From Candidatus Iainarchaeum sp. (lineage in GTDB: Archaea > Iainarchaeota > Iainarchaeia > Iainarchaeales > JACQJH01): DNA of 32,000 bases. Every line of letters begins with the position of its first letter. The first letter of the stretch is position 1. The notes under the pieces are model-generated. The model was not told the origin of the DNA, searched no databases, and saw nothing but the letters and a program-made list of their open reading frames with translations. The stretch is taken from assembly GCA_016205145.1 (NCBI GenBank), contig JACQJH010000001.1:90001-122000 (forward strand), given 5' to 3'. A program made the translations under genes and the position numbers. Positions 16,814 through 31,009 of this stretch are shown one piece after another.

Positions 16814-18424
16814 GTGGATCAAAACCTTCCAAAAGGCCAGTCCGCCATAGAATATCTTTTGCTGTTGGGCGCCGCGATTTTGATTGCCGCGGTTGTCGTT
16901 GCCTTGATTATTTTTGTGGGTTCCGGGGGCAAGCAGTCGGCGCAAAGAGGGTCGCAGACTGTTGCTGTAGCGCAGGGGAATCTTTCCAAATCCCTTGGCC
17001 TGCCAGGCCCCATCACCGACCGCGGCGGCGGAATTTTTGATTTGAAAAAGGATTTTGGCGCGAAAGGCGACGGGGTTTCCGACGATTATGAATCGTTCAT
17101 TGCTGCTGCGGCCAAGCTGAGCGGTTCGACTGACGCAACGCTTGTCATTCCTGCAGGGGACTATAAGATTGACCGGTACAAGATTTTGGCTGCGACTTCC
17201 GACGGCAGGCTTCCAAATGGCGTAACCGACATCAAGTTTTCCGGATGCAACGGCCTGGAAATTGTCGGCTTGGGAAAGGACGCATCGGGAAACTACAAGG
17301 CAAAAGTCGAGGTCAAGGGCGACTTTTACAGGTCGGCGGACCGCAGTGCCGTCAATGCCGCGGGCGTGACGGTGTGGAGTTCCAATTCCGGTTCGGTCAC
17401 GCCGTTTTATTTCGATCACTGTAACGGATTTTCCATTTCCGGCTTGGAATTGTACGGCAACAACGACAAGATGTCGCACGATCCGCGCGTCAGAGAACAC
17501 CCGTCAGGAATGGGCATTGCGACTTATGGCTGCAAAAATTATTCGATTTCCGACATTTTTGTGCACAACTTCCAGACGGACGGCATTTACCTTGGCGGCT
17601 CGGCAAGCCCCGTGGATTCGGGCGCAACCGTTGACGGCGTGGTTTCAAGCAGCAACGGCAGGCAGGGCCTCAGCATAATTCAGGTGAAAAACTCGACAAT
17701 AAAAAACAGCGTTTTCAAGGACACCGGCATTACGGGCGGAAGCGACACAGGATATAATCCGAGGGCCGGCGTTGACATCGAGCCGAACGTGAACGTCCCC
17801 AACATAACCGAAAATCTTGTTTTTGAAAACGACGAGTTCAGCAACAACCGCGGCTACCAGATTGTTTCAAGCGCTTATGTTGGCGGAATCGTGGTCAGGA
17901 ATTCAAGGGTTTTTTCGGGAAACCAGCGCAAGCTCGCCTATTTCAGGGTGAACGGCATTACAATCGAGGGCTCCGAATTCAAGACTTCTGCAAGGGAGTT
18001 TGCCCAGGACTGGGACAAGAGCGGATTCGGGGTCACTCTCATGGCGGGCGGAACCGCGCTTATAAAAAACAATCTCATAGAGGCATCCTCGTTGGCGTAT
18101 CCTGTGAAAACCGTTGGAATCCACAGGCCTTACGTGCACTTCTTTTCGGGAAGCGGGATAACCTTTGCGGGCAACAGAATTTCCACCGACTCAAGCTTTT
18201 TTTATCCCATTTCAGGGCAGGCTTATGACACCGCAATTTATTTGAACGTCGGCGAATCCTCGAACAACACTTTTTCGACCGGCATGACCGGCTTAAACCA
18301 TTTCGCAGTCGTTTACGGCCCGGCCACAAAAGTCGTTTCAGACGCGTTTTTGCCGCGGGACAATTTCAGGCCGCAGCCGGGATATGTTTGGACTGGCGCA
18401 GGCAACTCTTATTCGCAGAACTGA
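16814..18424 (+). CDS. class III (prepilin-type) signal peptide fused to a right-handed beta-helix, pectate-lyase-superfamily domain
   Basis: GTG start. N-terminus MDQNLPKG/QSAIEYLLLLGAAILIAAVVVALI (basic residue-Gly, then Q at +1, E at +5, then a hydrophobic helix). Followed by FDLKKDFGAKGDGVSDDYESF..VIPAGDY and repeated PbH1-like turns: NGFSISGLELYGNN, YSISDIFVHNFQTDGIYLGG, GLSIIQVKNSTIKNSVF, LVFENDEFSNN. Confidence 0.8.
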   Translation: MDQNLPKGQSAIEYLLLLGAAILIAAVVVALIIFVGSGGKQSAQRGSQTVAVAQGNLSKSLGLPGPITDRGGGIFDLKKDFGAKGDGVSDDYESFIAAAAKLSGSTDATLVIPAGDYKIDRYKILAATSDGRLPNGVTDIKFSGCNGLEIVGLGKDASGNYKAKVEVKGDFYRSADRSAVNAAGVTVWSSNSGSVTPFYFDHCNGFSISGLELYGNNDKMSHDPRVREHPSGMGIATYGCKNYSISDIFVHNFQTDGIYLGGSASPVDSGATVDGVVSSSNGRQGLSIIQVKNSTIKNSVFKDTGITGGSDTGYNPRAGVDIEPNVNVPNITENLVFENDEFSNNRGYQIVSSAYVGGIVVRNSRVFSGNQRKLAYFRVNGITIEGSEFKTSAREFAQDWDKSGFGVTLMAGGTALIKNNLIEASSLAYPVKTVGIHRPYVHFFSGSGITFAGNRISTDSSFFYPISGQAYDTAIYLNVGESSNNTFSTGMTGLNHFAVVYGPATKVVSDAFLPRDNFRPQPGYVWTGAGNSYSQN

Positions 18425-18483
18425 CGTTTGCCTTTTGTGCACTTGGGCGTGCCAAAGGATTTAATTTGTGTGAATGATATTTG

Positions 18484-20031
18484 ATGGTGAAACCGATGTT
18501 TTCCCGTGGCCAGTCCGCAATCGAGTATCTGCTGTTGCTTGGCGCCGCGATTTTGATTGCCGCGGTTGTCGTTGCCTTGATTTCTTTTGTGGGTTCGGGC
18601 GGAAAGACTTCGGCGCAGGAATCAGGCGTGCAGCAGAGGCTGGCAATGCAGAACCTTGCGGCTGTTGGGGGCATGGGTTTCTCCTATTCCTGTGTTGCTA
18701 ATGGTGTCTGCGAAGCCGATGAAACAATGCAGTCCTGTTCCGCGGACTGTGCTGGCAAGCCTTTCAGGCAGTACCTGCATTTTTATTCGGCGGAGGCGGG
18801 GGGTTCTGAGGTTTCTTCCGTGCCGGCGCCCATGCTTAACGTGCCCGCTTCGGGTTTGCGGCATTATATCTATGTCGAGCTTTCCGAAATGCACGGGCAT
18901 CTCAGTGTTTACCGTTCCGCCACCGTAAACAATGCGAATAACCGGTCTGTCGCGCTTTCACCCGGCGAAATCGACGCGCTGTTCAATCTTTACGGCGTGG
19001 AAACGGGCAATCCTGTTAGAGGGAAGAGCATGAACATGAGCATACTGCAGCGTGCCGACGTGCAGAAAATCCATCATGAACTTGCACAAGGCAATCCTGC
19101 GTATAATGCAAAGTACGGCAATGGCGGCCTGGAAACAGGGGTCGGGCTTGACGGTTCCGGAATGCCCGTTCTTGATGCTTCCGACAAGCTTGTGCCGGAC
19201 AGACCGGTACAGGATTACCAAGACGGCAAAACAATGCTGTGGCCGTTTTACTACAATGCCAGCGGCAAGCATAAGATGAGGGTTCTCTGGAACCTTAACA
19301 GCCCGGCGGTCAGGGAATATCTTGTGCGGTACGGCGTGAAAACCGCCTCTTTCAGTCCAAGCGGCGACCTGTTTATTGACAACACTATTTTTCCGGGCCA
19401 GGTGCTGGAGGATTATTCATATGTTTTTTCAGGTGCAAGGAACGGCCTTGCGGCGCATCTTTCCGGCATTACATTGGAAATTCGGGCAGAAATCGTGAAA
19501 CGGCTTGACGGAAAGGGGCTGATAATGAACGCTCTCAGGTTCACAAACTCCGACAATGAGATATTTTCTGATGCTGTTGTTGATTCCGGCCAGTTTGACG
19601 GTTTGATGGCCGAAAACCAGTTTTGGCGTGATGGCATTGCCATTGGCGGTTCTCCAAGGGGTGCGACGTCCGTTGCATGGTACCGGGATTTGACGCAGAA
19701 AATGAAATCAAAAGGCAAAAAGATTCTTTTTACGGCCTCCGGCTCCGGTTTTACGCGGGCTGATCCCTCAAAGATTTTGCCAGTTTGGTTATGGTTGCAC
19801 TTGGTTGCTGATGACAGCACGTATTTTCTATTGCCGGGCAATGGAGCCGATGGCGATTCGTTTGATAACCAGTTCCTTCCGTTTGTTTTTCCGCTCGGCT
19901 ATCCGCTTGACCAAGCACCGGTGCAGGACGGCAGTGTGTGGAGCAGGCGCTATGAGCGCGGCACGATTGTTTTTGACATTTCAAGCGGAAGGCTTGACGC
20001 CATAAGGTTCGAGGAAAACCCGCCCGGGTGA
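18484..20031 (+). CDS. class III (prepilin-type) signal peptide fused to a Cys mini-module and a GH-like domain; paralog of 26452-28209
   Basis: N-terminus M(VKPM)FSRG/QSAIEYLLLLGAAILIAAVVVALI; alternative ATG at 18496. 18541-18582 is 42/42 identical to 16868-16909. CVANGVCEADETMQSCSADC is followed by ~430 aa collinear with the 26452 gene (SGQFDGLMAEN, WLWLHLVADD, GYPLDQAPVQDGSVWSRRYERGTIVFD). The enzymatic family is not confidently named. Confidence 0.8.
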   Translation: MVKPMFSRGQSAIEYLLLLGAAILIAAVVVALISFVGSGGKTSAQESGVQQRLAMQNLAAVGGMGFSYSCVANGVCEADETMQSCSADCAGKPFRQYLHFYSAEAGGSEVSSVPAPMLNVPASGLRHYIYVELSEMHGHLSVYRSATVNNANNRSVALSPGEIDALFNLYGVETGNPVRGKSMNMSILQRADVQKIHHELAQGNPAYNAKYGNGGLETGVGLDGSGMPVLDASDKLVPDRPVQDYQDGKTMLWPFYYNASGKHKMRVLWNLNSPAVREYLVRYGVKTASFSPSGDLFIDNTIFPGQVLEDYSYVFSGARNGLAAHLSGITLEIRAEIVKRLDGKGLIMNALRFTNSDNEIFSDAVVDSGQFDGLMAENQFWRDGIAIGGSPRGATSVAWYRDLTQKMKSKGKKILFTASGSGFTRADPSKILPVWLWLHLVADDSTYFLLPGNGADGDSFDNQFLPFVFPLGYPLDQAPVQDGSVWSRRYERGTIVFDISSGRLDAIRFEENPPG

Positions 20032-20108
20032 ATTTTCGCCCAAGTCGGAATTCGGTGGCCCGGAAAGCTTTTTATATGGTTTTACACTATTTTCTATTGT
20101 GTTTTAAT

Positions 20109-20357
20109 ATGAATTTGACCGTCAATTTTTCCGGCCACGTTGAAGACGTAATTGAACGCCTCGTTGAAAAAGGCGTTGTCAAAACGAAATCCGAAGCGCT
20201 TCGGCTTGGCATTCTGAAGCTTGAAGAGCAGTATCTGCGCAGCCTTGACGCAGATGACCTGATTTTGGCTGAAAAGGCATGGGATGATTTCAAAGCAGGC
20301 AAGAACAAATCTCTGTCGGAAAGGGAGTTCTACTCTAAAACAGGCCTGAAAAAATGA
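20109..20357 (+). CDS. putative antitoxin (ribbon-helix-helix-like) of a RelE-family toxin
   Basis: 82 aa from ATG 20109; the track ORF starts at 20028. MNLTVNFSGHVEDVIERLVEKGVVKTKSEALRLGILKLEE has a strand-helix-helix pattern. Its stop overlaps the toxin start (ATGA, 20354-20357). Confidence 0.6.
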   Translation: MNLTVNFSGHVEDVIERLVEKGVVKTKSEALRLGILKLEEQYLRSLDADDLILAEKAWDDFKAGKNKSLSEREFYSKTGLKK

Positions 20358-20605
20358 GTTTTGAAGCGGTTTTTCTTGAATCTTTTGCCGATGACGTGGC
20401 AAGGCTTGACGGCAGCCAAAAAACGCTTGTTGAAAAAAGGCTCCGCAGGCTCACTGCAAACCCGTTTTCCGAAAAGCCACTTCACGGCCAGAAACGGTTT
20501 TGGGCTTCGAGGATCCTGAACCTGAGAATAATTTACCGCATTGAAGGGCAAAAAATATTTTTTGCCAGGGTTTCAAGCAGGAAAGACGTTTACAAAAACC
20601 TGTAG
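20354..20605 (+). CDS. relE: RelE/ParE-superfamily type II toxin
   Basis: 83 aa. FADDVARLDGSQKTLVEKRLRRLTANPF..PLHG....SRILNLRIIYRIEGQKIFFARVSSRKDVYK matches the RelE/StbE pattern (...RiiY.i......i..v.hRkdvY). Confidence 0.8.
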   Translation: MSFEAVFLESFADDVARLDGSQKTLVEKRLRRLTANPFSEKPLHGQKRFWASRILNLRIIYRIEGQKIFFARVSSRKDVYKNL

Positions 20606-20608
20606 CTG

Positions 20609-20642
20609 AAATTTTGGCAGGTTTGAAGACCTGCCAAAATTT
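20609..20642. terminator. perfect 14-bp hairpin between convergent stop codons (probable bidirectional terminator)
   Basis: aaattttggcaggt-ttgaag-acctgccaaaattt. It starts 4 nt after the relE stop (20603-20605) and ends 2 nt before the stop of the minus-strand gene (20644-20646). T-runs flank it on both strands. Confidence 0.6.
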
Positions 20643-20643
20643 T

Positions 20644-21639
20644 TCACGCAAGGATTTTTGGCACGAAGTCCGCCATTGTTTTCAGGCCGGCGCCCGCCGA
20701 GAATGCGACCGGAACCATGTTGACCGCGATCGCGGCCGTTGCCCTGTCGCCGTGAGTTCCGCCCGAGATTTTCATGTCGATTGGCGGCACGCCGTGGATT
20801 TTGACTGCGTCAAACGATTCCGCTTCCCCGATGCCGGCGCGGAAATTCATGGAAATTATTTCTTTTCCGTTCACTTTCGCCGAGGCAGTCTGCTTCACGC
20901 CGCGAACGCTTCCCATACTTATCGTTCCCCAGCTTAACGCAATCTCCTTGTCCGAGATTATCGGGCTGATTGTCTGGCTGAACTCGAAATCCTTAAAGCC
21001 AAGGCAGTGCGCTATCATTGAAAGCGATTCAGGCAGGCCGACGTGCCTGATTGTGCCTTCCGCAACCTTTTTGTCGAACTCTTCAACCGAAAGCGTGGAA
21101 CCGATTTTTTTCTGGAAGGGAACGCGCCTGTTCGAGGCGTCAATCTGCCTCGTGATTTCGATTTTTTCGATTTTCTGGCATGGCGCTGTAAGCATCAATG
21201 GCAATGCGTCCATTACAAAGCCGGGGTTGACTCCGACACCAAGCACGCTGACGTTGTTTTTGCCGGCGATTTTGTCCAAGCGCTCCGCGATTTTCCTGTT
21301 CTCGCCTATGGGGAAAGAAAGCTCTTCGGTTGTCGAAACCACGTTCAGGCCCGATTCAAGCGCTTCGATGATCTGCGGTTCTGCCTTGGCAAGGCTTGAA
21401 ACGGTTGTGTGAACAACAACGTCCGCTTTTGCCCCGGAGAAAACTTTTTTCGCGCTGTCAGAAACCGTTACGCCTGCACGTTTTCCATTGCACAGTTCTC
21501 CGGCATCCTTTCCGGCTTTTTGCGGGTCGATGTCAATCGCGCCAGCCAATTCAAGTGACTGCTTTTCAAGGCAAAGCCTCGCGGTTTCCATTCCAATAGT
21601 TCCCAAACCGTATTGAATGACCCTGATTTTTTTTGCCAT
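20644..21639 (-). CDS. DapB-like NAD(P)-binding oxidoreductase (2,4-diaminopentanoate / amine dehydrogenase-like family)
   Basis: 331 aa from MAKKIRVIQYGLGTIGMETARL (Rossmann GxGxxG) at ATG 21639, which is preceded by GGAGG. Also VVHTT, NVVSTTEE and C-terminal ISGGTHGDRATAAI. The gene is 26 nt downstream of the ThyX-like gene. Confidence 0.65.
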   Translation of the reverse strand: MAKKIRVIQYGLGTIGMETARLCLEKQSLELAGAIDIDPQKAGKDAGELCNGKRAGVTVSDSAKKVFSGAKADVVVHTTVSSLAKAEPQIIEALESGLNVVSTTEELSFPIGENRKIAERLDKIAGKNNVSVLGVGVNPGFVMDALPLMLTAPCQKIEKIEITRQIDASNRRVPFQKKIGSTLSVEEFDKKVAEGTIRHVGLPESLSMIAHCLGFKDFEFSQTISPIISDKEIALSWGTISMGSVRGVKQTASAKVNGKEIISMNFRAGIGEAESFDAVKIHGVPPIDMKISGGTHGDRATAAIAVNMVPVAFSAGAGLKTMADFVPKILA

Positions 21640-21665
21640 GCTTTTTTCCTCCCATTCCAAAAAAA

Positions 21666-23285
21666 TTATTTTTTGCCAATGCGCTCCAGCTTTTCATCCG
21701 CCTTCTTTTCCGCTTCCAGCCTTTCCAGGCCCGCGCCTTTCTCGTAGACGAATTTCATGAGTTCGAAGACAAGCGGGGTCGCCTTTTTCGCCTGATGGAA
21801 CATTTCGATTGAAACCCTTCGGTAGTCGGCGTGTCCCTGCGGCGTCGACCTCAGCTCAACCAAGTGGTACATTTCACGCGCGTTGAGAGTGAAATACCAT
21901 CTTATTTTGTACGCGAGCGGGACAACGTATTGTGCCTGCAACGGCATTTCCTTCGCGATTTTATCGTAAGTTTCCTTCGCTCCTGCCATTGCCTTTTCAA
22001 ATTCCTTCAAAACGCCCGCCTTTTCCAGTTCGGGATAAGTGTCATAGCCGAAGTTTGCCGTCAAAAGCTGGCGTTCCTGTGTAAGCTGGCGATGTCGGTG
22101 CAAGTCACGGAAGCCGCCGTAATTTGAGAGCAAGTCGAAAGTGTAGTATGCGTTTTCGAAGCTTCGCAAAGGCTTGTGCCTGCGGTTCTGCCTGTGCGCA
22201 AGAGATGCATGGATGACTTTGCGCTTTTCCTCTTCGCCCATTGCGGCAACGATTTTTTTGAGCTGGTGCAGGGGCTTGTCGCTGTGCGCGTAAAGCAGCG
22301 CGCAAACGATTTTGTTGTCGGCTTCCATGTCAAAGTCGACCAGTTCCACTTCCTTTGCCTGCTCCGCATGTTTGCCTGCAAGCAGTTCTTTTGCGGTTGC
22401 GTCAAGGTTTGCGTTCGCCTGCCTGAAAAAATCCTGTGTCGGGCCGCCGTATTTTCCGGCCGCGCGCTTGACGAAAGAAGGAATGTAAGTCAAAAGCTCT
22501 TCGTGCAATGAAGAAGCGATGCCGTTGATTTCCTTCAATGGCGAGGCGTGCATTTTGAGTATGAGGTATTCGAACGCCCTGCCATTGCCGTACAGGCCGA
22601 GGTTTGTCAGCGTTGAAGCAGGCAGGAGGCCGCGCAGGAGGTCGCAGGTTTTAGCCTTGATTGTCGACTTGTACGCGCGGTCGGTTGTCTCGGAGTCCTG
22701 CGGAAACCATTCCTCGGCCTGTGTTCTCACTTTCGGCACGAGTTCGGCGTACGTGCCGAACAGCAAATCGCACGTTTCCACGTAATCCTTTTCGAATGCC
22801 GACTGCATTATGCCAGGCTCGAGCAGGTACTGGTATCGGCCGCCCTCTTTCTCGTCAAAGTAAACGTAGCGCGTGCTTTTTTCCAGGGGGGAGAGGCCAA
22901 TGCGTGAATCCTCGAGGACTTTGCTTGCGATGATTGAAACCTTTTCGCATGCGACGTGCGCTCCGCCTAATTCCGCGACGGAATCGTCGCCGTAGCCGAC
23001 CAGAACGCGGTCGTAAAACTCTTCGGCTTTCTTGGTTGCGATTGCCTGCTGTTCTCCGTTTCCAAGTGAATAGTTGACGATTTCCCGGAAGCCGGATTCC
23101 TTGTCGGCAATGAATTCGTCGAGCAAAAGCCTGCGCAATGGTTTCGGCGAGCGCGAATAGCGCGAGAACAGTGCGCCTGAAACGACTTCGGGCAGGTTTT
23201 TGAGGACAAAGACGTTTTTGTCCATGTTCGAAAAAAACGGTTCCAGGATTTTCCGCTCTTCCGAGGAAAAAGAATTTTCCGCCAT
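21666..23285 (-). CDS. long-form ThyX-like (Thy1-fold) protein, putative FAD-dependent thymidylate synthase
   Basis: 539 aa. The C-terminal half has FRDLHRHRQLTQERQ and TLNAREMYHLVELRSTPQGHADYR, which align with the ThyX RHR motif and NxRxLxxxxxLR...H/Q region. N-terminal GALFSRYSRS suggests a second, degenerate copy. Confidence 0.6.
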   Translation of the reverse strand: MAENSFSSEERKILEPFFSNMDKNVFVLKNLPEVVSGALFSRYSRSPKPLRRLLLDEFIADKESGFREIVNYSLGNGEQQAIATKKAEEFYDRVLVGYGDDSVAELGGAHVACEKVSIIASKVLEDSRIGLSPLEKSTRYVYFDEKEGGRYQYLLEPGIMQSAFEKDYVETCDLLFGTYAELVPKVRTQAEEWFPQDSETTDRAYKSTIKAKTCDLLRGLLPASTLTNLGLYGNGRAFEYLILKMHASPLKEINGIASSLHEELLTYIPSFVKRAAGKYGGPTQDFFRQANANLDATAKELLAGKHAEQAKEVELVDFDMEADNKIVCALLYAHSDKPLHQLKKIVAAMGEEEKRKVIHASLAHRQNRRHKPLRSFENAYYTFDLLSNYGGFRDLHRHRQLTQERQLLTANFGYDTYPELEKAGVLKEFEKAMAGAKETYDKIAKEMPLQAQYVVPLAYKIRWYFTLNAREMYHLVELRSTPQGHADYRRVSIEMFHQAKKATPLVFELMKFVYEKGAGLERLEAEKKADEKLERIGKK

Positions 23286-23350
23286 TGCCCCACCAGACTA
23301 AATTAAAGCAATGGCAATGGTTAAATATTTCACTTTTGATTATTGTTTTC

Positions 23351-26300
23351 ATGCCCCATAAAACCGGCCGGCCGCGCCATTATTCCGACAGGGCCATTAA
23401 GCGGCCCGGAAGAGGCTTTTCGCATGGCCAGGGCTCTTTGGACCGCCTGATTCTCCTCGGAATCGTGGTTTTGGTTTTCGCAGTCATAATGCTTGTTGCC
23501 TTTTCCCGTCCGCATGAAAGGGCTGACGGGAAAGTGCAGGCCTATTATGCGGGGAATGGGCGGAGTGGCGTTCGTGAAGTGTTCGACTTTTTGGGCGTGC
23601 TAAAATTTGGCATGAATTCCGGTTCCGGCGGCCCTGAAATTAAGCCCGCCGTCATTCCGGGTGACGTGAACCAAAGCAAAAAGCCGGATGTCGTGCCCGC
23701 AACAGGCACTGACAAGGAACCCGTGATTCGGGCCTGCAGCAATGACTGTTCTTCCGCCGGCTTGAGGCAGTGTTCCGGTTCCGGCTATAATGTCTGCGGA
23801 AACTTTGACGAAGACGACTGCCTTGAATGGGGTTCCTGGACAGGCTGTCCTGACGGCCGGGCGTGCGCCAACGGAAACTGCGAAGTTTCTCGCGGGGTTT
23901 TTTCTTCTGAGGGCCTTGTTTCATACTGGCGTTTTGATGATTTGTCGGATTCGTTTGGTTCAAATGATTTGGTTATGTCCGGCAATGTTGTTGCGGGTTC
24001 TTCGCCTGATTGCGCTTTCGGCGGCTGCCTTGCCCTTGATTCTTCTTCCGGGCAGGCCGAAGCCAGGGGTTTGCCGGATTCGGGCGGTTTGTCTGATTTG
24101 TCGATTGCGTTGCGCGTCAAGTTTGGCGCCGGTGGCGATACTGCCACCCGGGCCTGGGTGGCGGGCTGGGCCGATGCGCAGGGCCAGGGCGTAGGTTTTT
24201 ACCGCTATGGCGCCAGCCAGCTTGTTTTTTTCGCCAACGGCGCGGATGGCAGTTTGACTGATTGCTGGAGTTCCGCCTTGAATGACGGCAAATGGCACCG
24301 GCTGGCGGGCGAGGCGTCTGAACAGCACATAACCTTGTTTGTGGACGGGTTTCCTCTTTGTTACAAGGCGCGTTCCGGCGCATTTCTTTCCGGCGCCAGC
24401 TTCAAGGCCGGCGGCCCGGTTTCCCCATCTGGCAGCGTTCTTGTTGACGAGCTGATGGTTTTCGACCGTTCGTTCACGCAGTTCGTTCACCCGCAGGCCG
24501 GTTACACTTTGCTGGGCGCTTTGCCATCCAACGCGCTTGGCATGAGGGGGCCGGTTATAGGCGCCGGCGGCGCGGTGCCGGGCGTGTACCTGTTTGACGG
24601 CAAAATATACTTTTTTTCCAGCATGGACGCATACAACTATTATAGCCTTTGCAGTTACGCCGTTTCAGGCAGCTCCGCGCGCTCTTTTGCTGTCGAGTAC
24701 GGTGATCGTTACAATACCTTCTTCGTGGACGGGGGCTTGGTGTGTGCGTGGCCGGCAAACCGCGGGCTCGCCGTTGCGCGTCCGCCTGACGACGGCTATG
24801 CCAATGAAGGGGCGGCCGCAACCACGCGGCTGCAGGCGGGCACGTTCCTGTCAACGGCCGGCCTTGACGGGCTGCCCGTGCACCGCAAGCGCCTAATTAC
24901 CGCGGGCTGGCTCAGCCCTGATTTGAAGTCCTTAAAGGAAGACCTTGGCGTGTACGACGAGTCCGGATTCGACGGCATCGCGATAGACGACGAGGTATTC
25001 TTCAATGAACCGGGCAGGCCGTGGCCATTGAATATATTTCAGAAGACCGCCTTAAGCACGGGCCGCAGGTACCGGGAAGGGCAGTTTGACGCCGTCGCCG
25101 GAGAAGTCGGGCAGGCCCTGGGAAAAGCGAAGAACCTGAAGCATAATTACATGGTACTCTATCTGGGCTGGACGCATTCGTCGGTTCTCGGCAACCACCT
25201 GAGCCCGGTGCTCGATGCGGACGGGATACCGGTATTCGACGCCAACGGCCTTAAGCTCCATAACCTGACTGCGGACGAGCAATGGCAAATCATTGCCGGC
25301 AACGCGCGGGTTGCAGCAGGGCTGGCGAAAAAGGCCGGCCTTGAAGGAATCATAATTGATACTGAACAGAACTATTCGGTCAACACCCAGGACCCCGGTT
25401 ACATTGCTTACAAGGGTTCTCCGCTTACCCTCAGCTACGAACAATCCGTGCCGGTCAATCCGGCGCCGTTCGCCGAGTACGAGGCCGCGGCCCGCCAGCG
25501 GGGGCAACAATTGGCATCCGCGATGGCCGAGGAGTATCCGGACATGACCGTGCTCTTCCATTTTGCGTACAGCCTGTACAGCGACAAGGACAGAAAGGAA
25601 ACAGGCGGAATCGACCAAAAGAGTTATTTGGAACGGTATACCCTACTGCCTGCCTTCATCGACGGCATGCTCGAAGGCGCTCCGGGCATCCGGTTCATTG
25701 ACGGCGACGAGTGGACCTACACCATCCGGCGGCGCGGGCAACTGCTTGACCGCAAGAAGCATTTCCTTGAAAACGCGCTTGAAAAATCCGCCACAAACAC
25801 GCCCGGGAACCGACAGATTGAATACGGTCAAGAGCTGTGGGCTACCGTGCTTGAGCAGACGCCCGATGATGCAGCTTGGGTTGATGTAAACTTTATTCCC
25901 GAAGATGAGATTGAATTGGCTAAGCAGTTCGGATACGGAATCCGCGACGCCTTGCGCGCAAGCGAGGGCATGGTTCTGATTTGGCACGCACAGCGTCCGC
26001 CGTGGCCGGTCTACCGGACTGCAAGAAATGGGCAGAGGTACCGCGCCCAGGGCGTGATGCCCGATTCTTTCAGACAGGCGATAAAGGATGCGCGCAAGAA
26101 TGTCGAGGGCAACACCAATCCGGTGATGCCGGTTGTCGGTTTTGTTTCGGCAGGCACGGGGGAAAAAGTTTCAATCACTTTGCCTGAGGCAAGCGACGCC
26201 GACGGGGATTCCTTGATTACCTGGGTTGACGGCCTGCCGGAAGGCGCGTCTTACGAGCCGCTTTCCCGCACAATCGAATGGCCGAACCCGCGCGCGGGAA

Positions 26301-26377
26301 TCTACTCCCTGTCTTACGGCGCTTCCGACGGCTTTTTGGAAGCCGCGGCACAGTTCAGCCTTGTGATTTACGGCTAG
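23351..26377 (+). CDS. large secreted multidomain protein: possible degenerate class III signal, Cys-rich module, LamG/ConA-like lectin domain, ~550-aa putative TIM-barrel-like domain, C-terminal Ig/cadherin-like domain
   Basis: 1008 aa from ATG 23351; the track start 23285 would abut the divergent gene. FSHG/QGSLDRLILLGIVVLVFAVIMLV. CSNDCSSAGLRQCSGSGYNVCGNFDEDDCLEWGSWTGCPDGRACANGNC. LamG-type GLVSYWRFDDLSDSFGSNDLVMSGN...WHRLAG...LFVDG...VDELMVFDRSF. GFDGIAIDDE and GLEGIIIDTEQNY. C-terminal ITLPEASDADGDSLITWVDGLPEGASYEP...GIYSLSYGASDG. Confidence 0.8.
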   Translation: MPHKTGRPRHYSDRAIKRPGRGFSHGQGSLDRLILLGIVVLVFAVIMLVAFSRPHERADGKVQAYYAGNGRSGVREVFDFLGVLKFGMNSGSGGPEIKPAVIPGDVNQSKKPDVVPATGTDKEPVIRACSNDCSSAGLRQCSGSGYNVCGNFDEDDCLEWGSWTGCPDGRACANGNCEVSRGVFSSEGLVSYWRFDDLSDSFGSNDLVMSGNVVAGSSPDCAFGGCLALDSSSGQAEARGLPDSGGLSDLSIALRVKFGAGGDTATRAWVAGWADAQGQGVGFYRYGASQLVFFANGADGSLTDCWSSALNDGKWHRLAGEASEQHITLFVDGFPLCYKARSGAFLSGASFKAGGPVSPSGSVLVDELMVFDRSFTQFVHPQAGYTLLGALPSNALGMRGPVIGAGGAVPGVYLFDGKIYFFSSMDAYNYYSLCSYAVSGSSARSFAVEYGDRYNTFFVDGGLVCAWPANRGLAVARPPDDGYANEGAAATTRLQAGTFLSTAGLDGLPVHRKRLITAGWLSPDLKSLKEDLGVYDESGFDGIAIDDEVFFNEPGRPWPLNIFQKTALSTGRRYREGQFDAVAGEVGQALGKAKNLKHNYMVLYLGWTHSSVLGNHLSPVLDADGIPVFDANGLKLHNLTADEQWQIIAGNARVAAGLAKKAGLEGIIIDTEQNYSVNTQDPGYIAYKGSPLTLSYEQSVPVNPAPFAEYEAAARQRGQQLASAMAEEYPDMTVLFHFAYSLYSDKDRKETGGIDQKSYLERYTLLPAFIDGMLEGAPGIRFIDGDEWTYTIRRRGQLLDRKKHFLENALEKSATNTPGNRQIEYGQELWATVLEQTPDDAAWVDVNFIPEDEIELAKQFGYGIRDALRASEGMVLIWHAQRPPWPVYRTARNGQRYRAQGVMPDSFRQAIKDARKNVEGNTNPVMPVVGFVSAGTGEKVSITLPEASDADGDSLITWVDGLPEGASYEPLSRTIEWPNPRAGIYSLSYGASDGFLEAAAQFSLVIYG

Positions 26378-26417
26378 CGGCCTATAACCGTTTGGCATTC
26401 TTTCATGGGCATGCTTT

Positions 26418-26492
26418 CTGTTTTAAAAAACCTTTCAGGGCAATCGTTTTTATGCATCCAAGCGACGCCATCAAGGGAACCGCGTCAAAAAG
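26418..26492 (+). repeat. direct repeat copy A: promoter plus first 13 codons (partner 28245-28320)
   Basis: ctgttttaaaaaacctttcagggcaatcgtttttatgcatccaagcgacgccatcaagggaaccgcgtcaaaaag is ~84% identical to copy B, with an identical 21-nt core cgtttttatgcatccaagcga. The TATA-like ttttaaaaaa (26421-26430) lies ~26 nt upstream of the conserved ATG at 26452. Confidence 0.85.
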
Positions 26493-28209
26493 ATTTTTCA
26501 TGCCGCATTTGAAACCGGTTGTTGTCTGCGCATTTGTGTTGCTTGTTTTGCTTTCCGGTTGCACCGCCACAAAAAGCAAAGGCGTGGAAAAGCCGGTTGA
26601 TTCCGACAAAAACTTTTTGGATTCAAACCAAGCCAAGTCCGCGCCCGAAACTGGCGGGCCGCGACAGCCGCCAACCACGGAATTGGTTGCTGAACAACCG
26701 GACGCCAATGTTCCGGATGCAAACGCCGGCGCACCCGACGTGAATGCAGCGGCTGCTGTCGTGTTTTGTAACCGGAACGGCGCCTGCGACACAAACGAGT
26801 CCGCGGTTTCCTGTCCGGCCGATTGTGCCATTCTTTCCGGAGGCGGAGGAGGCGGCAATTCGCCACAGCCGCCGTCAGGAAACGATAGCGGTTCGTGCAA
26901 TTCGGACGGCGCATGCAACGGAAACGAGGACACAGCTTCATGCCCTGCTGACTGCAGTGTAAGGCAGTTCAGGCATTATTTGCGGTTTTATGCTTTGGAT
27001 TACTATAATCGGTTTTCAACAAAGCCGCCGGCGCCGGAAGGGCTGGTTGAATTCACCATCACGCAGGGCACGCCTTTTGGCAACCTGCAGGATTATACTC
27101 ATTTTAATGTGACGGATTCCGGCCATGTTGTTTTGACAACTTCCACTGCGCCCAAAACTCTTGTTGCGTTGAGCCAAAGCGAGCTTGACGGCTTGTTTGC
27201 GCAGTATGGTTTTGGCGGGGATAAAAACAACATCTATTCTGGCGTGATTGCAAGGGCTGAAGTCGGGAAAATCCATGAGGAACTTGTAGAACGCCATCCG
27301 GAGCTTTTTCCGAACGGCACTGAATTGTTTGTCGGCGCCGTCATAGGGCCGGACGGGTTGCCCGAGCTCGTGGACAACTTTCCGGTCAGGGAAAGAAGCG
27401 ACATTGCCGACTACCAGCTTGGCAAAACAATGGTTTACCCGCTTCCATATTCGCCGGTCGGCTACGGGCGGTACCGGACGCTTTGGAATCACGGCAGCTG
27501 GGCGGTCAGGGTATATCTTGCAAGAAGGGCCAATAAGCTGGTGAATGGCGTTCCAGGCGTGGAGAATATTTTTTTGGATAACGTGCAATTGCCGGCTTAT
27601 ATCAAATATCTTGGCTCCCGTGTTGGTTCGGTTCCGGTGCCAAATTATGTTTCGCCCGGAAGCAGGGATGAACAGTTTGCTGTTTATGCGAACAATTTTG
27701 TTTCGGTTCTTACTGCCGTTCGCGTAAAAACCGGCGCAAAAATGCTTCTTAACGGTTTGTATGAAGTGAAGGCTAACCAAAGCATTTTTTTTCAAAAACT
27801 AATTGCGTCCGGCCAGTTTGACGGCCTTATGACGGAAAACGGGTTTTTTGCTGACGGCGTGGAAAACAATTTGGGCGGCAGCGCGGCAAGCGTGCAATGG
27901 TACTGGGATCAGGTGCAGTGGTTGAAGCAAAACGGCAAAAACGCGGTTTTTTTGGCGGGCGGGAAGGACGCTTCGAAGGCATCCAAGGCCTGGCTTTGGG
28001 TGCATTTAGTTGCTGACACCAATGTTTTCTTTTCGACCAATCCCAATGAACATTTTGACGTTTACGATTCTCCTTTGGGGTATCCTCTTGACCAGGCTCC
28101 GGTAAAAAACGGCAGCGTGTGGAGCAGGCGCTACGAGCGCGGCACGATTGTCTTTGACGTTTCGGGCGGAAGGCTTGACGACATAAAGTTTGTCGAAGGC
28201 CCGGCATAG
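26452..28209 (+). CDS. lipobox-anchored GH-like protein with two Cys mini-modules; paralog of 18484-20031
   Basis: MHPSDAIKGTASKRFFMPHLKPVVVCAFVLLVLLSGC; alternative start at 26500. FCNRNGACDTNESAVSCPADCA, a GGGGGG linker and CNSDGACNGNEDTASCPADCS. The body is collinear with the 18484 gene (SGQFDGLMTEN, WLWVHLVADT, GYPLDQAPVKNGSVWSRRYERGTIVFD). Confidence 0.8.
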   Translation: MHPSDAIKGTASKRFFMPHLKPVVVCAFVLLVLLSGCTATKSKGVEKPVDSDKNFLDSNQAKSAPETGGPRQPPTTELVAEQPDANVPDANAGAPDVNAAAAVVFCNRNGACDTNESAVSCPADCAILSGGGGGGNSPQPPSGNDSGSCNSDGACNGNEDTASCPADCSVRQFRHYLRFYALDYYNRFSTKPPAPEGLVEFTITQGTPFGNLQDYTHFNVTDSGHVVLTTSTAPKTLVALSQSELDGLFAQYGFGGDKNNIYSGVIARAEVGKIHEELVERHPELFPNGTELFVGAVIGPDGLPELVDNFPVRERSDIADYQLGKTMVYPLPYSPVGYGRYRTLWNHGSWAVRVYLARRANKLVNGVPGVENIFLDNVQLPAYIKYLGSRVGSVPVPNYVSPGSRDEQFAVYANNFVSVLTAVRVKTGAKMLLNGLYEVKANQSIFFQKLIASGQFDGLMTENGFFADGVENNLGGSAASVQWYWDQVQWLKQNGKNAVFLAGGKDASKASKAWLWVHLVADTNVFFSTNPNEHFDVYDSPLGYPLDQAPVKNGSVWSRRYERGTIVFDVSGGRLDDIKFVEGPA

Positions 28210-28244: not shown

Positions 28245-28320
28245 CTGTTTTAAAAATCCTTTTCCGGCCATTCGTTTTTATGCATCCAAGCGAAGCAATC
28301 CGGGCTTCCGCGTCAAAAAG
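28245..28320 (+). repeat. direct repeat copy B: promoter plus first 13 codons of coaBC
   Basis: ctgttttaaaaatccttttccggccattcgtttttatgcatccaagcgaagcaatccgggcttccgcgtcaaaaag. The TATA-like ttttaaaaa (28248-28256) lies ~28 nt upstream of ATG 28280. Confidence 0.85.
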
Positions 28321-29482
28321 CCTTTACGGAAAGCTCATAGTGTTGGGAGTTTCATCAAGCATTGCCGCAGTGAAGACTGTTGAAATTGCAAGGGAACTGA
28401 TCAGGCACGGCGCGGAAGTGCAGGCAGTGATGTCAAAGGGCGCGGAAGACATCATTGCGCCGGGGGCGCTGGAGTTTGCCACGGGGAAGCCTGTCATAAC
28501 GCATCTCAGCGGAATGGTCGAGCACGTCGACCTGTTCGGAGCGCATGGAAAAGCCGATTTGCTTTTGTTGTGCCCTGCAAGCGCAAACGTGATTGGAAAA
28601 ATCGCGAATGGCATAGCTGATGATGCCCTGACAACCATTGCAATGACTGTTGTTGGGGTGAAAAAGCCAGTCCTGGTCTGCCCGGCAATGCATTTGGAAA
28701 TGTGGCAGAACACTGCCGTCAGGGTGAACGTCGAAAAGCTTGGCGTGCTGGGCGCGGAATTCGTGCCGGCGAAAAGCCTTGAAGGCGCGGAAAAAATCGC
28801 GGACAAGGAAACGATTGTGCTGTTTGTGGAACGGGCGCTTTCCGGCAAAAGGCTTGCAGGCAAAAAGGTTGTCGTTTGCGCCGGCGCAACGCGCGAGGAA
28901 ATCGATCCCGTGCGCGTGCTGACAAACAAGGCATCGGGAAAAACCGGCGAGGAAATCGCAAAAGAGGCTTTCAGGCAGGGCGCACAAACCACACTTATAC
29001 ATAATCGGGATTGTTTTGTTTCCGGCATCAAATGCGTGCAGGCGCAAACCATCGAGGAATTCCGCAAGGCAATCCTTTCGGAGCTTGAAGGCGCGGATGT
29101 TTTCGTCTCGGCGGCGGCAATCGGCGATTTTGTAGTGGAAAAGGCGAAGGACAAGCTTGCTTCGGAAAAAGGCGTTGAATTGAAGTTCAGGCCCGCCCCT
29201 AAAATCCTCGCGGAAGTCGTGAAGAAATTTCCCGATTTGTTCGTTGTCGCGTTCAAGGCGGAAACGAACAAGGGGACGGAAGAGCTTGAAAAAATCGCAA
29301 AGGAAAAGCTGAAGGAACTGAAGCAGGGCTTTGTGGTTGCGAACGACGTGGCACATGGTGGAATGGGAACGGATGAAAATTCGGTTTTGATCGTCGGCAA
29401 AAACTTTTCGGAAAGCGTTTCAGGAAAGAAAAGCCTGATTGCCAGAAAAATCGTGGAAAAAATTGAATGCGGTCTGCCATAA
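28280..29482 (+). CDS. coaBC: bifunctional phosphopantothenoylcysteine decarboxylase / phosphopantothenate-cysteine ligase
   Basis: 400 aa from MHPSEAIRASASKSLYGKLIVLGVSSSIAAVK. CoaC region: PASANVIGKIANGIADDALT. CoaB region: VCAGATREEIDPVRVLTNKASGKTG and AAAIGDF. The start is chosen at the conserved ATG of repeat B rather than the track start 28190. Confidence 0.9.
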   Translation: MHPSEAIRASASKSLYGKLIVLGVSSSIAAVKTVEIARELIRHGAEVQAVMSKGAEDIIAPGALEFATGKPVITHLSGMVEHVDLFGAHGKADLLLLCPASANVIGKIANGIADDALTTIAMTVVGVKKPVLVCPAMHLEMWQNTAVRVNVEKLGVLGAEFVPAKSLEGAEKIADKETIVLFVERALSGKRLAGKKVVVCAGATREEIDPVRVLTNKASGKTGEEIAKEAFRQGAQTTLIHNRDCFVSGIKCVQAQTIEEFRKAILSELEGADVFVSAAAIGDFVVEKAKDKLASEKGVELKFRPAPKILAEVVKKFPDLFVVAFKAETNKGTEELEKIAKEKLKELKQGFVVANDVAHGGMGTDENSVLIVGKNFSESVSGKKSLIARKIVEKIECGLP

Positions 29483-29596: not shown

Positions 29597-31009
29597 ATGC
29601 CGGCCGCGGTTGGAGTTGATTCGTTGAAAAAAAGCATGTTTTTCGTTTTGCTGTTTTTTGGTGTTGTTGTTTCGGGCTGCCTTCAAACTGACTCTGAAAA
29701 AGCCGCCATTGAGCTTTCAGCTTCGACTGTTGAAGGAAAACTCGCCAAGACCCTGATGGAATCGCTGAAAAAGACAGGCGAGTGCAGCGTATCGGATTAT
29801 GCCGGGGTTGCCGGCCCGGCCAACCCGCTGATAAGAAACATGGGCTTTAACGTTTCTCTTCCGACACAGGAGACCGAAGCCGCCGAATTGGTTGAAAATG
29901 CAAAAGAATGCAATGTGCAATTGCTGCGGAACGTTTTGGAAGTCGAAAAGGACAAAAAATACCAGGTCAACTACACTGCAAAAGTTGACAGTTCCTGCAA
30001 ATACTCCGGCCTAAAACCGGTTTTGTCGGCTTATATTTTGACGATTTCGGTCGACCTTGAGGAAAAAACAGCGGTTGTTGAAAAGGGAAAGCTTAAGGAC
30101 AGCATTGCACAGCAGGTATCAGAGTTCCAGCCGGCTTTTATGCTCATGGGAAAGTGCGCGGCTCCAATACTGCTCGGCATTGGATTTTTCGGGGACTTTT
30201 TGGGTTCAGACAGCGGCCCGGGCTTAGACGGCGGTCCAGACGAAGGGGAAAAGATAGCTTACGGCTTTGACGCTTTCTGGGATGATTCGAAACAAAACCC
30301 GATTCAGCTGTCGTGGAATCACGCCCAAAGTGACGGCCAGTACTATGTCGCAATTGAAATGTGGGCCACCGGCAACAGTTCGCCGCTTGGTTCAATTGAA
30401 ACGACCATAGAGAACTTAAAGGACGGCCCGGCGTTCCCGTTGGGCCACGTTTTCAGTTATGACCTGGACGGCGGGGAAATTTATTATGGCGGGCAGCTGT
30501 CATACCCGCACGAATTCAAGGTCGATGCCTATCTTTTGGACAGTGAATACAGCATTGTGGAAAAGTTCGGCTACAAGGAATTTTCAATTGGCGCGCCCCA
30601 ACAGCAGGAGGCGCCGGATGCAGCAGGCGTTGTTTCGAATTTTGTTGCAAGATGGGACGCCGAAGACAGCCAGAACCCCCTGAAGTTTACATGGGATTTT
30701 GTTCCGCAGGGCGGCCAGTATTTTGTGGCGCTTGACATGTGGAATACCGGCAACAGTTCGCCGCTTGGTTCGATTGAAATGACCATAGAGCGGTTAAAGG
30801 AGGGCTCGCCGTTCCCGTTGGGCCATGTTTATGCCGCGGAAGACGGAAGCGGCTCGCTTTATTGGGGCGGGCAATACACTTATCCGGACGTGTTCAGGAT
30901 ACACGCATACCTCTTGGACGAATCATATGATTTGGTCGGGGAAACAGCGTATGTTGAATTGACAAGAAACAATGCTGACGAAAGCCCGACATCGGTTCCC
31001 ATCGGATGA
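29597..31009 (+). CDS. lipobox protein with a C-terminal tandem 126-aa repeat
   Basis: 470 aa. ...KKSMFFVLLFFGVVVSGC is a signal plus lipobox; an in-frame TTG at 29624 is an alternative start. Two repeat units share W(D/N)xxQxxGQY(Y/F)VAx(E/D)MWxTGNSSPLGSIExTIExLK(D/E)GxxFPLGHV...YxGGQxxYPxxFxxxAYLLD. Confidence 0.75.
   Translation: MPAAVGVDSLKKSMFFVLLFFGVVVSGCLQTDSEKAAIELSASTVEGKLAKTLMESLKKTGECSVSDYAGVAGPANPLIRNMGFNVSLPTQETEAAELVENAKECNVQLLRNVLEVEKDKKYQVNYTAKVDSSCKYSGLKPVLSAYILTISVDLEEKTAVVEKGKLKDSIAQQVSEFQPAFMLMGKCAAPILLGIGFFGDFLGSDSGPGLDGGPDEGEKIAYGFDAFWDDSKQNPIQLSWNHAQSDGQYYVAIEMWATGNSSPLGSIETTIENLKDGPAFPLGHVFSYDLDGGEIYYGGQLSYPHEFKVDAYLLDSEYSIVEKFGYKEFSIGAPQQQEAPDAAGVVSNFVARWDAEDSQNPLKFTWDFVPQGGQYFVALDMWNTGNSSPLGSIEMTIERLKEGSPFPLGHVYAAEDGSGSLYWGGQYTYPDVFRIHAYLLDESYDLVGETAYVELTRNNADESPTSVPIG
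30260..30964 (+). repeat. tandem intragenic repeat, two units (30260-30589 and 30638-30964), period 378 nt
   Basis: Core blocks at 30371-30452 and 30749-30830 are ~88-90% identical at the nucleotide level (ggcaacagttcgccgcttggttc.attgaaa.gaccatagag...gttcccgttgggcca.gttt). Confidence 0.8.

Follow-up and report, generated by a model that had tools for sequence, protein, structure and literature searches.

Genes A and B

The 32,000-nucleotide (nt) stretch of contig JACQJH010000001.1 analyzed here (positions 90,001 to 122,000; hereafter the window, with coordinates counted from its first letter) comes from a metagenome-assembled genome (MAG) of a groundwater Candidatus Diapherotrites archaeon, a member of the DPANN. 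It carries two genes, A and B, which share one predicted catalytic body and begin with different targeting signals. Gene A (18484..20031, + strand) encodes 515 amino acids (aa) from its ATG and comprises a putative class III signal, one four-cysteine (4-Cys) mini-domain and a catalytic body resembling the glycoside hydrolase (GH) families GHL15 and GH168. Gene B (HY394_00575; 26452..28209, + strand) is annotated as a hypothetical protein. It encodes 585 aa, in which a lipobox signal is followed by a 68-aa linker rich in acidic residues, Pro and Ala, two 4-Cys motifs and a GHL15/GH168-like body.

In a BLASTP comparison, A (18481/18484-20031) was 37% identical to B over 471 columns (E 6e-80), and the two were collinear from the Cys motif to the stop, in agreement with a first-pass annotation of this DNA that had described them as collinear paralogs. 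The motifs quoted there were all recovered in the global alignment of A and B, namely FRQYLHFY/FRHYLRFY, GKTMLWP/GKTMVYP, SGQFDGLMAEN/SGQFDGLMTEN, WLWLHLVAD/WLWVHLVAD and GYPLDQAPV..GSVWSRRYERGTIVFD. Most of the alignment had also been described as diverged at the DNA level, and the nt identity was indeed 0.4-0.6 over most of the body, with a synonymous divergence (dS) of ~1.75 and a nonsynonymous divergence (dN) of 0.70 by the Nei-Gojobori method (NG86). In a neighbor-joining (NJ) tree of the bodies only, 73% of bootstraps paired A with P0023, a relative that comes from another organism, and 17% paired it with B. From these comparisons, we propose that A and B are either anciently diverged paralogs or separately acquired homologs.

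Between its signal and its body, A carries the 4-Cys motif CVANGVCEADETMQSCSADC (18691..18750, + strand), as read from the sequence, and B has two such motifs (26767-26826 and 26896-26955, + strand). NCBIfam searches found nothing for the isolated 4-Cys motifs of A and B and no families for the full-length proteins. The copy in the relative P0036 matched the NCBIfam "acidic double-disulfide repeat" (E 5e-8), a name that for A and B denotes a resemblance only. The motif varies in position: A, B and P0008 have it ahead of the body, and in P0005, P0007 and P0009 it follows the body on the C-terminal side. P0009 and P0007 are tandem family paralogs of a second archaeon (L028 8237-11605; 45% identity), in both of which the 4-Cys motif and a conserved extension (...GYI.QWKRGEI(S/T)ML.LMQK...AGTGC) lie C-terminal to the body, the extension being the most nucleotide-similar part of the pair (12/16 codons identical).

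Predicted catalytic body

The first-pass label "GH-like" for the shared body was borne out, as the family profile, the fold and the catalytic residues all point to the GHL15/GH168 superfamily. The Pfam family GHL15 (PF14885) matched A with 14.3 bits (E 0.04) and B with 21.5 bits (E 2.5e-4), both under the cut-off of 27, and the match to B was restricted to the C-terminal motif. An exhaustive profile search of 1.84 billion representatives returned only 65 relatives, indicating that the family is small, and GHL15 was matched by 24 of the 29 aligned family members (E<0.01; best 1.9e-13). Against solved structures, the family profile matched the GH168 enzyme Rho5174 (9F9V; E 6e-12), Fun168D (E 2e-5) and a Muricauda GH168 protein annotated "GHL15" (E 1e-4).

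An AlphaFold2 (AF2) model of the A body, for which the input alignment comprised 10 sequences, had a predicted local distance difference test score (pLDDT) of 76.4 and a predicted template modeling (TM) score of 0.81, with strands and helices alternating. When this model was searched against the PDB with Foldseek, ranks 1-14 were all GH168 endo-1,3-fucanase chains (E 1e-9 to 4e-7, probability 1.0, TM-scores 0.39-0.52), followed by GH191 and GH156. The modeled body is consistent with the (beta/alpha)8 barrel fold of the solved GH168 enzymes.

Catalytic residues were mapped by counting along hidden Markov model (HMM) alignments to GH168 chains, for which the catalytic Asp/Glu pair is D152/E228 in Rho5174 and D206/E264 in Fun168A (residue roles from PMC11685898 and PMC12534559). 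The AF2 model places Asp299 of A (LFIDN; 19378..19380, + strand), the predicted nucleophile, where a barrel strand reaches its C-terminal end; this residue is invariant in the 29 family sequences and aligns with the catalytic Asp of both Rho5174 and Fun168D. Glu377 (LMAEN; 19612..19614, + strand), the predicted acid/base, aligns with E228 of Rho5174 in "QIEH" and occupies a position conserved in at least 90% of the same 29 sequences. N349 of A is a conserved Asn that aligns to a conserved Asn of GH168. The corresponding predicted catalytic residues of gene B are D376 (27577-27579) and E462 (LMTEN; 27835-27837), both on the + strand. On the basis of the profile matches, the Foldseek ranking and the aligned invariant D and E, A and B are probably divergent endo-glycanases of the GHL15/GH168 superfamily with a retaining mechanism.

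The resemblance to GH168 (Fun168A, Fun168D/E, Rho5174 with PDB entry 9F9V, and PbFucA with entry 8RG3) and GHL15 extends from the shared (beta/alpha)8 barrel (PMC11685898, PMC12534559) to an Asp nucleophile on an "F.D" strand, a conserved Asn and a Glu on an ".E." strand at matching spacing, and to a C-terminal "pLG.Pl...g.vw.R.ye.g.v" motif with a small beta subdomain. A and B differ from GH168 in their low sequence identity (~14-16%), in no more than moderate TM-scores (0.42-0.52), in falling under the Pfam gathering cut-off and in having an additional N-terminal beta region of ~130 residues. The hosts differ as well: GH168 is found in marine fucoidan degraders, whereas A and B belong to a groundwater DPANN archaeon, and their substrate is probably not algal fucoidan. 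From this habitat, a substrate other than sulfated fucan seems likely.

The relatives are patchily distributed among DPANN archaea, bacteria of the candidate phyla radiation (CPR; Vogelbacteria, Paceibacterota), a Sedimentisphaerales MAG and a Clostridia MAG. The sequence of one of them, P0002 (L001 846-2366), overlaps a gene for a Wzy-type O-antigen polymerase (PF14296) at the 3' end of the latter, a hint that at least some members act in the processing of surface polysaccharides or exopolysaccharides. No genome with both A-type and B-type orthologs was found, the related loci (7 in genome contigs and 15 in metagenome contigs) being only 29-43% identical, and a degenerate DNA pattern for WSRRYERGT(I) gave 0 matches in metagenome contigs.

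N-terminal signals

The N terminus of A, MVKPMFSRG↓QSAIEYLLLLGAAILIAAVVVALISFV (arrow, predicted cleavage site), carries a putative class III signal (18505..18591, + strand) of the form R8-G9↓Q10-S-A-I-E14, in which a basic residue and Gly precede the cleavage site, Gln and Glu occupy +1 and +5, and a 22-residue hydrophobic helix follows. Pfam Class_IIIsignal (PF04021) matched residues 8-31 of the translation from the TTG start at 18481 (E 0.0016; 18.8 bits, with a curated cut-off of 23.7), and NCBIfam returned nothing for the class III signal of A. B begins with ...MPHLKPVVVCAFVLLVLLSGC, in which MPHLK and a 13-residue hydrophobic core precede the canonical lipobox L34-S35-G36-C37 (LLSGC; 26548..26562, + strand), Cys37 (26560-26562) being the predicted lipidation site. 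This lipobox matches the definition [LVI][ASTVI][GAS]C (PMC12462473), and lipoproteins as well as AliA, a candidate for the lipidating enzyme, are reported to be widespread among DPANN (PMC12462473). As in the Haloferax volcanii AliA/AliB lipoproteins, L-S-G-C in B follows a positive n-region and a 13-residue h-region. One body with two anchoring modes, as the first-pass annotation had it, is thus what these motifs predict, the prepilin-type signal of A having the archaeal class III form and B a lipobox. The 32-kb window contains no prepilin peptidase or filament assembly genes and no ABC transporter.

When the N termini of 43 near-full-length family members were inspected, many proved to be plain Sec signals or transmembrane anchors. 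Canonical lipoboxes were present in P0014/15 (LIAGC), P0042 (LVGC) and P0056 (LAGC), with several relaxed ones in addition, and archaeal pilin-type N termini were present in P0008 and P0036, the latter weakly matching UpsA and arch_flag_Nterm. P0027 has a bacterial prepilin N-methylation signal, FTLIELMIV (PF07963, E 1.5e-4; GspH/ComGC-type matches), before the same catalytic body, as in bacterial PF07963 N_methyl proteins. The bacterial N_methyl signal is of the G↓FTLIE type and that of A of the archaeal QxSxE type, and by its sequence P0027 shows what appears to be an independent capture of a pilin-type signal. On the family NJ tree the signal types were interspersed, so that the swapping of signals, whose recurrence the first-pass annotation had suggested checking by phylogeny, does recur across the ~43 members with Sec, lipobox, archaeal class III and bacterial prepilin types. 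Because the signal types are interspersed and the position of the 4-Cys motif varies, the family is, as judged from sequence, a catalytic cassette repeatedly recombined with differing targeting modules.

Conservation of the 3' tails

The 3' ends of the two genes are far more similar than the bodies. A repeat search paired the tail of A (19887..20022, + strand) with that of B (28068..28203, + strand) at 82% nt identity, and over the last ~45 codons the nt identity of A and B climbs to 0.80-0.91. In A the tail motif PLGYPLDQAPVQDGSVWSRRYERGTIVFDISSGRLDAIRF occupies 19891-20010 and forms C-terminal beta strands; in B the motif lies at 28072-28191, with a sub-tract of low dS at 28111-28191. Both runs of 17 identical nt that the first-pass annotation had pointed out are present in the tails (GTGTGGAGCAGGCGCTA and GAGCGCGGCACGATTGT). 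A third 17-nt run, TCCGGCCAGTTTGACGG, was found in the catalytic SGQFDG block, showing that such runs are not specific to the tail and accompany any strongly conserved A/B motif.

The two copies are not the product of misassembly. The sequence is MAG derived and assemblers can be misled by repeats, such that reads of one paralog might be collapsed onto the other. However, the tails differ at 21/126 positions and hence were not collapsed, and three independent Logan assemblies (SRR12113383, SRR12113384, SRR12113385) matched 3.9-10.8 kb spanning the tails at 100% identity. This agreement effectively rules out an assembly artefact, which we regard as extremely improbable.

In the AF2 model, the tail of A forms four confident beta strands (model residues 389-420, pLDDT 84-91), corresponding to the small beta subdomain described for GH168 (PMC11685898). 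The tail motif is kept in all 43 members and aligns to the C termini of the GH168 crystal chains. Another pair, P0013-P0027, from separate clusters, showed a tail identity of 0.85 at a body identity of 0.37, nearly as in A-B. In addition, by hand count, the tail of P0046, an A-type ortholog fragment from another organism, is 80% identical to that of A and 80% identical to that of B. The first-pass annotation had offered strong constraint and recent gene conversion as alternatives, and these observations strongly support the former at the protein level: since the motif is family-wide and present in solved GH168 structures, since P0013-P0027 behaves similarly and since P0046 is equally close to A and B, the sequence comparisons indicate that purifying selection alone is sufficient to account for the protein-level identity of the tails.

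Synonymous divergence and possible gene conversion

Considered jointly, these results are probably best explained by A and B being ancient GHL15/GH168 paralogs that differ in their export/anchor modules and owe their 3' identity mainly to purifying selection. The competing explanation for the tails is short-patch ectopic gene conversion (~75-130 nt) between A and B, or from a third paralog, well after divergence. We consider conversion possible though unlikely; in an extended form of it, family paralogs of this lineage may repeatedly have exchanged sequence at the tail as a hotspot.

Several observations weigh against our explanation, most of them by favoring conversion. The proportion of synonymous differences (pS, Nei-Gojobori) dips exactly at the tract that the first-pass annotation had singled out, a candidate conversion patch at 19930..20010 (+ strand): pS was 0.28 there (dS ~0.35), compared with 0.74 in the preceding 15 equally conserved codons, which are saturated, and 0.68 in the rest (dS ~1.75). 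A window scan of NG86 values gave a permutation p of 0.03. Within the tract, codons of A and B agree position by position even where they are heterogeneous (Arg AGG, CGC, CGC, AGG; Gly GGC, GGC, GGA; Ile ATT, ATA), and codon bias in this genome is not strong. The tandem pair P0009/P0007, used as a control, had a background codon identity of 50% and no dip in its tail (7/15). Among 903 pairs, A-B had the largest residual of tail against body identity (tail 0.85, body 0.33; z 3.5), and tail similarity was highest for A-B while the body-only tree joins A to P0023. Furthermore, L002, a fragment of a 94%-identical A ortholog, differed from A at 19/145 sites in the tail and at 6/201 upstream (p 0.0005), a density four times higher in the tail (p 0.02 without the last 13 nt); 7 of the 19 tail differences match B, including the cluster GTT TCG GGC, and at 7 sites A equals B. 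A point of another kind concerns the anchors, as the signal assignments for A and B consist of motifs plus a sub-threshold Pfam match.

Codon-level tests were less favorable to conversion. Among degenerate codons encoding the same residue in A and B, 22/35 were identical in the tail and 64/129 in the body (Fisher p 0.19), with ~0.4 expected from the codon usage of the window. Within the sub-tract 19930-20010, 17/22 codons were identical. The best 21-codon window coincided with the tract of the first-pass annotation (17/21 identical) and was not significant by permutation (p 0.16) or against per-residue expectations (p 0.11). Taken as defined a priori the tract gave p 0.0014, but it had been picked post hoc. 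GENECONV-like maximal-fragment tests on a 20-sequence family codon alignment gave p<1e-4 with all polymorphic sites (19900-20005), p 0.005-0.07 with third positions and p 0.8 with the synonymous positions of A/B same-residue codons, the strictest version. We therefore attribute the all-site result to amino-acid constraint and rejected it as evidence of conversion, since it is inflated by constraint specific to the subclade and since pairs from different genomes gave comparable values.

Those pairs, which are unable to convert with each other, also show the signal in the tail. L011-P0009, from different metagenomes, has a perfect run of ~34 nt in the same tail, with 20/27 codons identical and a fragment score of 25 (30 for A-B), and in L011-L014, from different genomes, the codon identity in the tract was 0.87, compared with 0.77 for A-B. 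The B tail is, moreover, as near to the foreign A-type ortholog P0046 as the A tail is. The evidence from L002 was down-weighted and set aside as decisive ortholog evidence, because the contig has 1.39x coverage and its open reading frame (ORF) looks chimeric, fusing an unrelated N terminus to the A tail. Finally, a dS of ~0.35 in the tract makes any conversion old, not recent. Overall, the sliding-window check suggested by the first-pass annotation did find that synonymous divergence is nonuniform (0.28 versus 0.68), although the dip is borderline after correction for scanning (p 0.03-0.8). The recent gene conversion that it had proposed could not be established, as the scan-corrected values were p 0.11-0.16, 0.03 and 0.8 and inter-genome pairs show similar tail runs. 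Codon similarity in 19930-20010 is above the gene-wide background and still within reach of constraint, shared codon usage and chance.

Identity at the nucleotide level could also reflect a functional DNA or RNA element, such as an mRNA stability, termination or regulatory site, and both tracts are indeed found in the final ~100 nt of their genes. Against this, Rfam gave no match in the window, the sequences 3' of the two stops are unrelated, L002 has synonymous changes in the tract (ACG>ACA, GAC>GAT, TAT>TAC), the control pair P0009/P0007 lacks nucleotide-level conservation there and, over the first half of the conserved motif, synonymous differences have reached saturation. We judge such an element to be very unlikely.

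Two further features of L002 were recorded. Its ORF at 56-757 (P0010) joins an unrelated N terminus of 120 aa, rich in membrane helices, to the last 113 residues of the A ortholog (94% nt identity). It could be a real gene that was truncated or recombined, or else a chimera created by assembly at low coverage. At 809-1465, where the window has a ParE pair, L002 carries another gene resembling A, which again has this class III signal and is 72% identical in nt to the 5' half of A, indicating that the gene content beside A differs among close relatives.

Exchange of signal and promoter modules

Sequence exchange at the locus was seen more clearly at the 5' ends. Immediately upstream of A lies P0004 (16814..18424, + strand), annotated as a right-handed parallel beta-helix repeat protein, in which a class III signal (PKG↓QSAIEY...) precedes a right-handed beta-helix body that is pectate-lyase/rhamnogalacturonase-like (Pfam Beta_helix, E 2.6e-10; Pect-lyase_RHGA_epim, E 1.4e-5; Class_IIIsignal, E 0.0073). 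Its signal module (repeat D3, copy 1; 16835..16944, + strand) shares 85% nt identity over 110 nt with 18508-18617 of A, and 35/37 residues are identical as counted from the translations. At the center of the module, in the hydrophobic signal core, 16868-16909 and 18541-18582 form a perfect 42-nt run, with flanks rich in synonymous differences. Of the same-residue degenerate codons, 24/35 were identical, 14 of them consecutively (permutation p 0.01; 0.0007 at a background of 0.5). The A-like gene of L002 has five changes in the signal core, three of which alter amino acids, indicating that the core is not constrained at the nucleotide level. The 42-nt patch is, on these sequence grounds, a stronger candidate for gene conversion than the 3' tails, and it favors conversion of the tails insofar as it shows that exchange occurs at this locus. 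With one anchor placed on two bodies, A and the beta-helix protein mirror the arrangement of one body with two anchors in A and B.

A second exchange involves coaBC (28280-29482; Pfam Flavoprotein and DFP), the product of which starts MHPSEAIRASASKSLY. A 77-nt direct repeat with 79-84% identity and a TATA-like TTTTAAAAA box surrounds gene B. The upstream copy (D4a; 26421..26497, + strand) comprises a TATA-like box, TTTTAAAAAA, ~27 nt upstream of the ATG and the first 15 codons of B (MHPSDAIKGTASKRF). The downstream copy (D4b; 28249..28325, + strand), taken as the native one, comprises the promoter-like box and the start of coaBC (MHPSEAIRASASKSL). Gene B thus appears to use a captured copy of the coaBC promoter and start, a direction of copying that we infer from the sequences. 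The spacing of the box, ~27 nt from the ATG, presumably reflects leaderless transcripts. A sigma-70 promoter/terminator scan of the window was uninformative, its models not being suited to an archaeon. By supplying the first 15 codons of B, the copied coaBC start lengthens the n-region of the B signal (MHPSDAIKGTASKRF followed by MPHLK...), and B is unlike typical archaeal lipoproteins in having this duplicated start and an unusually long n-region of 21 aa. Module shuffling at the locus is real, and it is better seen in the signal module and in the coaBC 5' copy than in the tails.

Neighboring genes

The GC content was ~0.52 across the window, with no compositional break at gene A or gene B, and a tRNA scan of the window was empty. 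The neighborhood consists of housekeeping genes, including those for PPDK, ThyX and CoaBC and a DapB-like gene, intermixed with many predicted surface proteins. Directly downstream of A is an antitoxin/ParE pair (a small ORF and a ParE toxin; 20109-20605).

A LamG protein of 1008 aa is encoded at 23351-26377. Its N terminus, ...RGFSHG↓QGSLDRLILLGIVVLVFAVIML, fits the class III pattern QxSx(E/D)xxxL, and on this motif it may be the third pilin-signal protein of the cluster; PF04021 was not reported for it by Pfam. It was also considered as a third paralog of A and B and rejected as such, a profile-profile comparison with the family being negative (hhalign probability 0.4%).

Three further ORFs of the window have similar lipoboxes, starting at 8409 (LAGC), 10986 (FAGC) and 29597 (VSGC); in FAGC, the F at -3 falls outside the lipobox definition of PMC12462473. 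The first encodes a 790-aa protein (8409-10781; LALAGC) with repeated Cys-rich segments (C..D..C.D....T.D.C...C) and a weak PKD match. The last encodes a 470-aa protein (29597-31009), for which Pfam gave no family. It has an internal 119-nt repeat (30334-30452 and 30712-30830; 85% identity, 378-nt spacing), indicating, at the sequence level, a tandem duplication of a ~126-aa domain. The ORF at 10986-11948 (+ strand) forms a second mosaic pair of paralogous predicted surface proteins with 31240-31983 (- strand). These are 43% identical overall, with 54 of the first ~60 aligned residues identical by hand count (KDRLF.DRTG.IGIGTT.PEVKLDIKESDQTYPPLRITNTKNDGYAG...) and ~82% nt identity over 165 nt, the rest being diverged. 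Both share a Cys-rich ending, ...NADGTC.C, and the second ORF may extend past the edge of the window.

Discussion

The homology, fold, catalytic residues and signal motifs reported above lead to the following predictions for processing, localization and substrate. The GHL15/GH168 superfamily, to a small branch of which A and B are assigned, consists of retaining (beta/alpha)8 glycanases that act in the endo mode, with Asp as the nucleophile and Glu as the acid/base. Each of the two copies has been joined to its own export and anchoring module, and both proteins would be exported. A prepilin peptidase would cleave A after Gly9, and the remaining hydrophobic N-terminal helix would fix A either to the membrane or to a pilus-like fiber. 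B, with its Sec-type lipobox signal, would be lipidated at Cys37, and the 68-residue linker and two 4-Cys mini-domains would space the enzyme from the membrane. As the substrate of the retaining Asp/Glu mechanism, both may use a polysaccharide with alpha linkages, perhaps one that is acidic or sulfated. The tail motif PLG.PL....G..W.R.Y.RGTI.FD would complete the fold, with purifying selection the primary cause of the near-identity of the 3' ends.

The predicted anchoring of A resembles that of the Sulfolobales bindosome and of many archaeal substrate-binding proteins, in which a class III signal and helix are proposed either to tether the protein to a surface structure resembling a type IV filament or to incorporate it there (bioRxiv 10.64898/2026.04.22.720090). 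Like A with its putative class III signal, these are globular non-filament proteins whose N terminus joins a prepilin-like signal of this class to a hydrophobic helix. Their cargo is a solute-binding protein, whereas that of A is a predicted glycanase, with the beta-helix enzyme next door; hydrolases are not mentioned in that report (bioRxiv 10.64898/2026.04.22.720090). A more far-reaching joint reading would have several polysaccharide-degrading enzymes (the GH168-like endo-glycanase, the beta-helix lyase/hydrolase and possibly the 1008-aa LamG protein) displayed through one class III module on a scaffold that resembles a type IV pilus or a bindosome. The lipid-anchored paralog would stay membrane-proximal, and short-patch conversion would homogenize the signal core and the C-terminal beta motif, as interchangeable modules, across genes that are ancient or have no other relationship. 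We hold this reading to be speculative and rather improbable; if true, it would amount to an "enzymatic pilus" toolkit directed against host or biofilm glycans.

Precedents exist for the modular swapping of signals, for non-pilin proteins with class III signals, for lipoproteins in archaea and for conversion between paralogous genes; what is new here is the placement of A and B as distant members of a known superfamily. For the comparison of paralogs, the locus shows that identical nt runs at the ends of genes can stem from constraint together with shared codon usage, and that an all-site GENECONV-type test would here yield a false "p<1e-4".

The assignment provides an annotation for two DPANN "hypothetical proteins" as predicted retaining endo-glycanases with assigned catalytic residues, and it adds DPANN archaea and CPR bacteria to the known range of the GHL15/GH168 superfamily, that of marine fucoidan degraders. 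The repeated coupling of one catalytic body to Sec, lipobox and pilin-type signals helps to predict the surface proteome and host interaction of ultra-small archaea.

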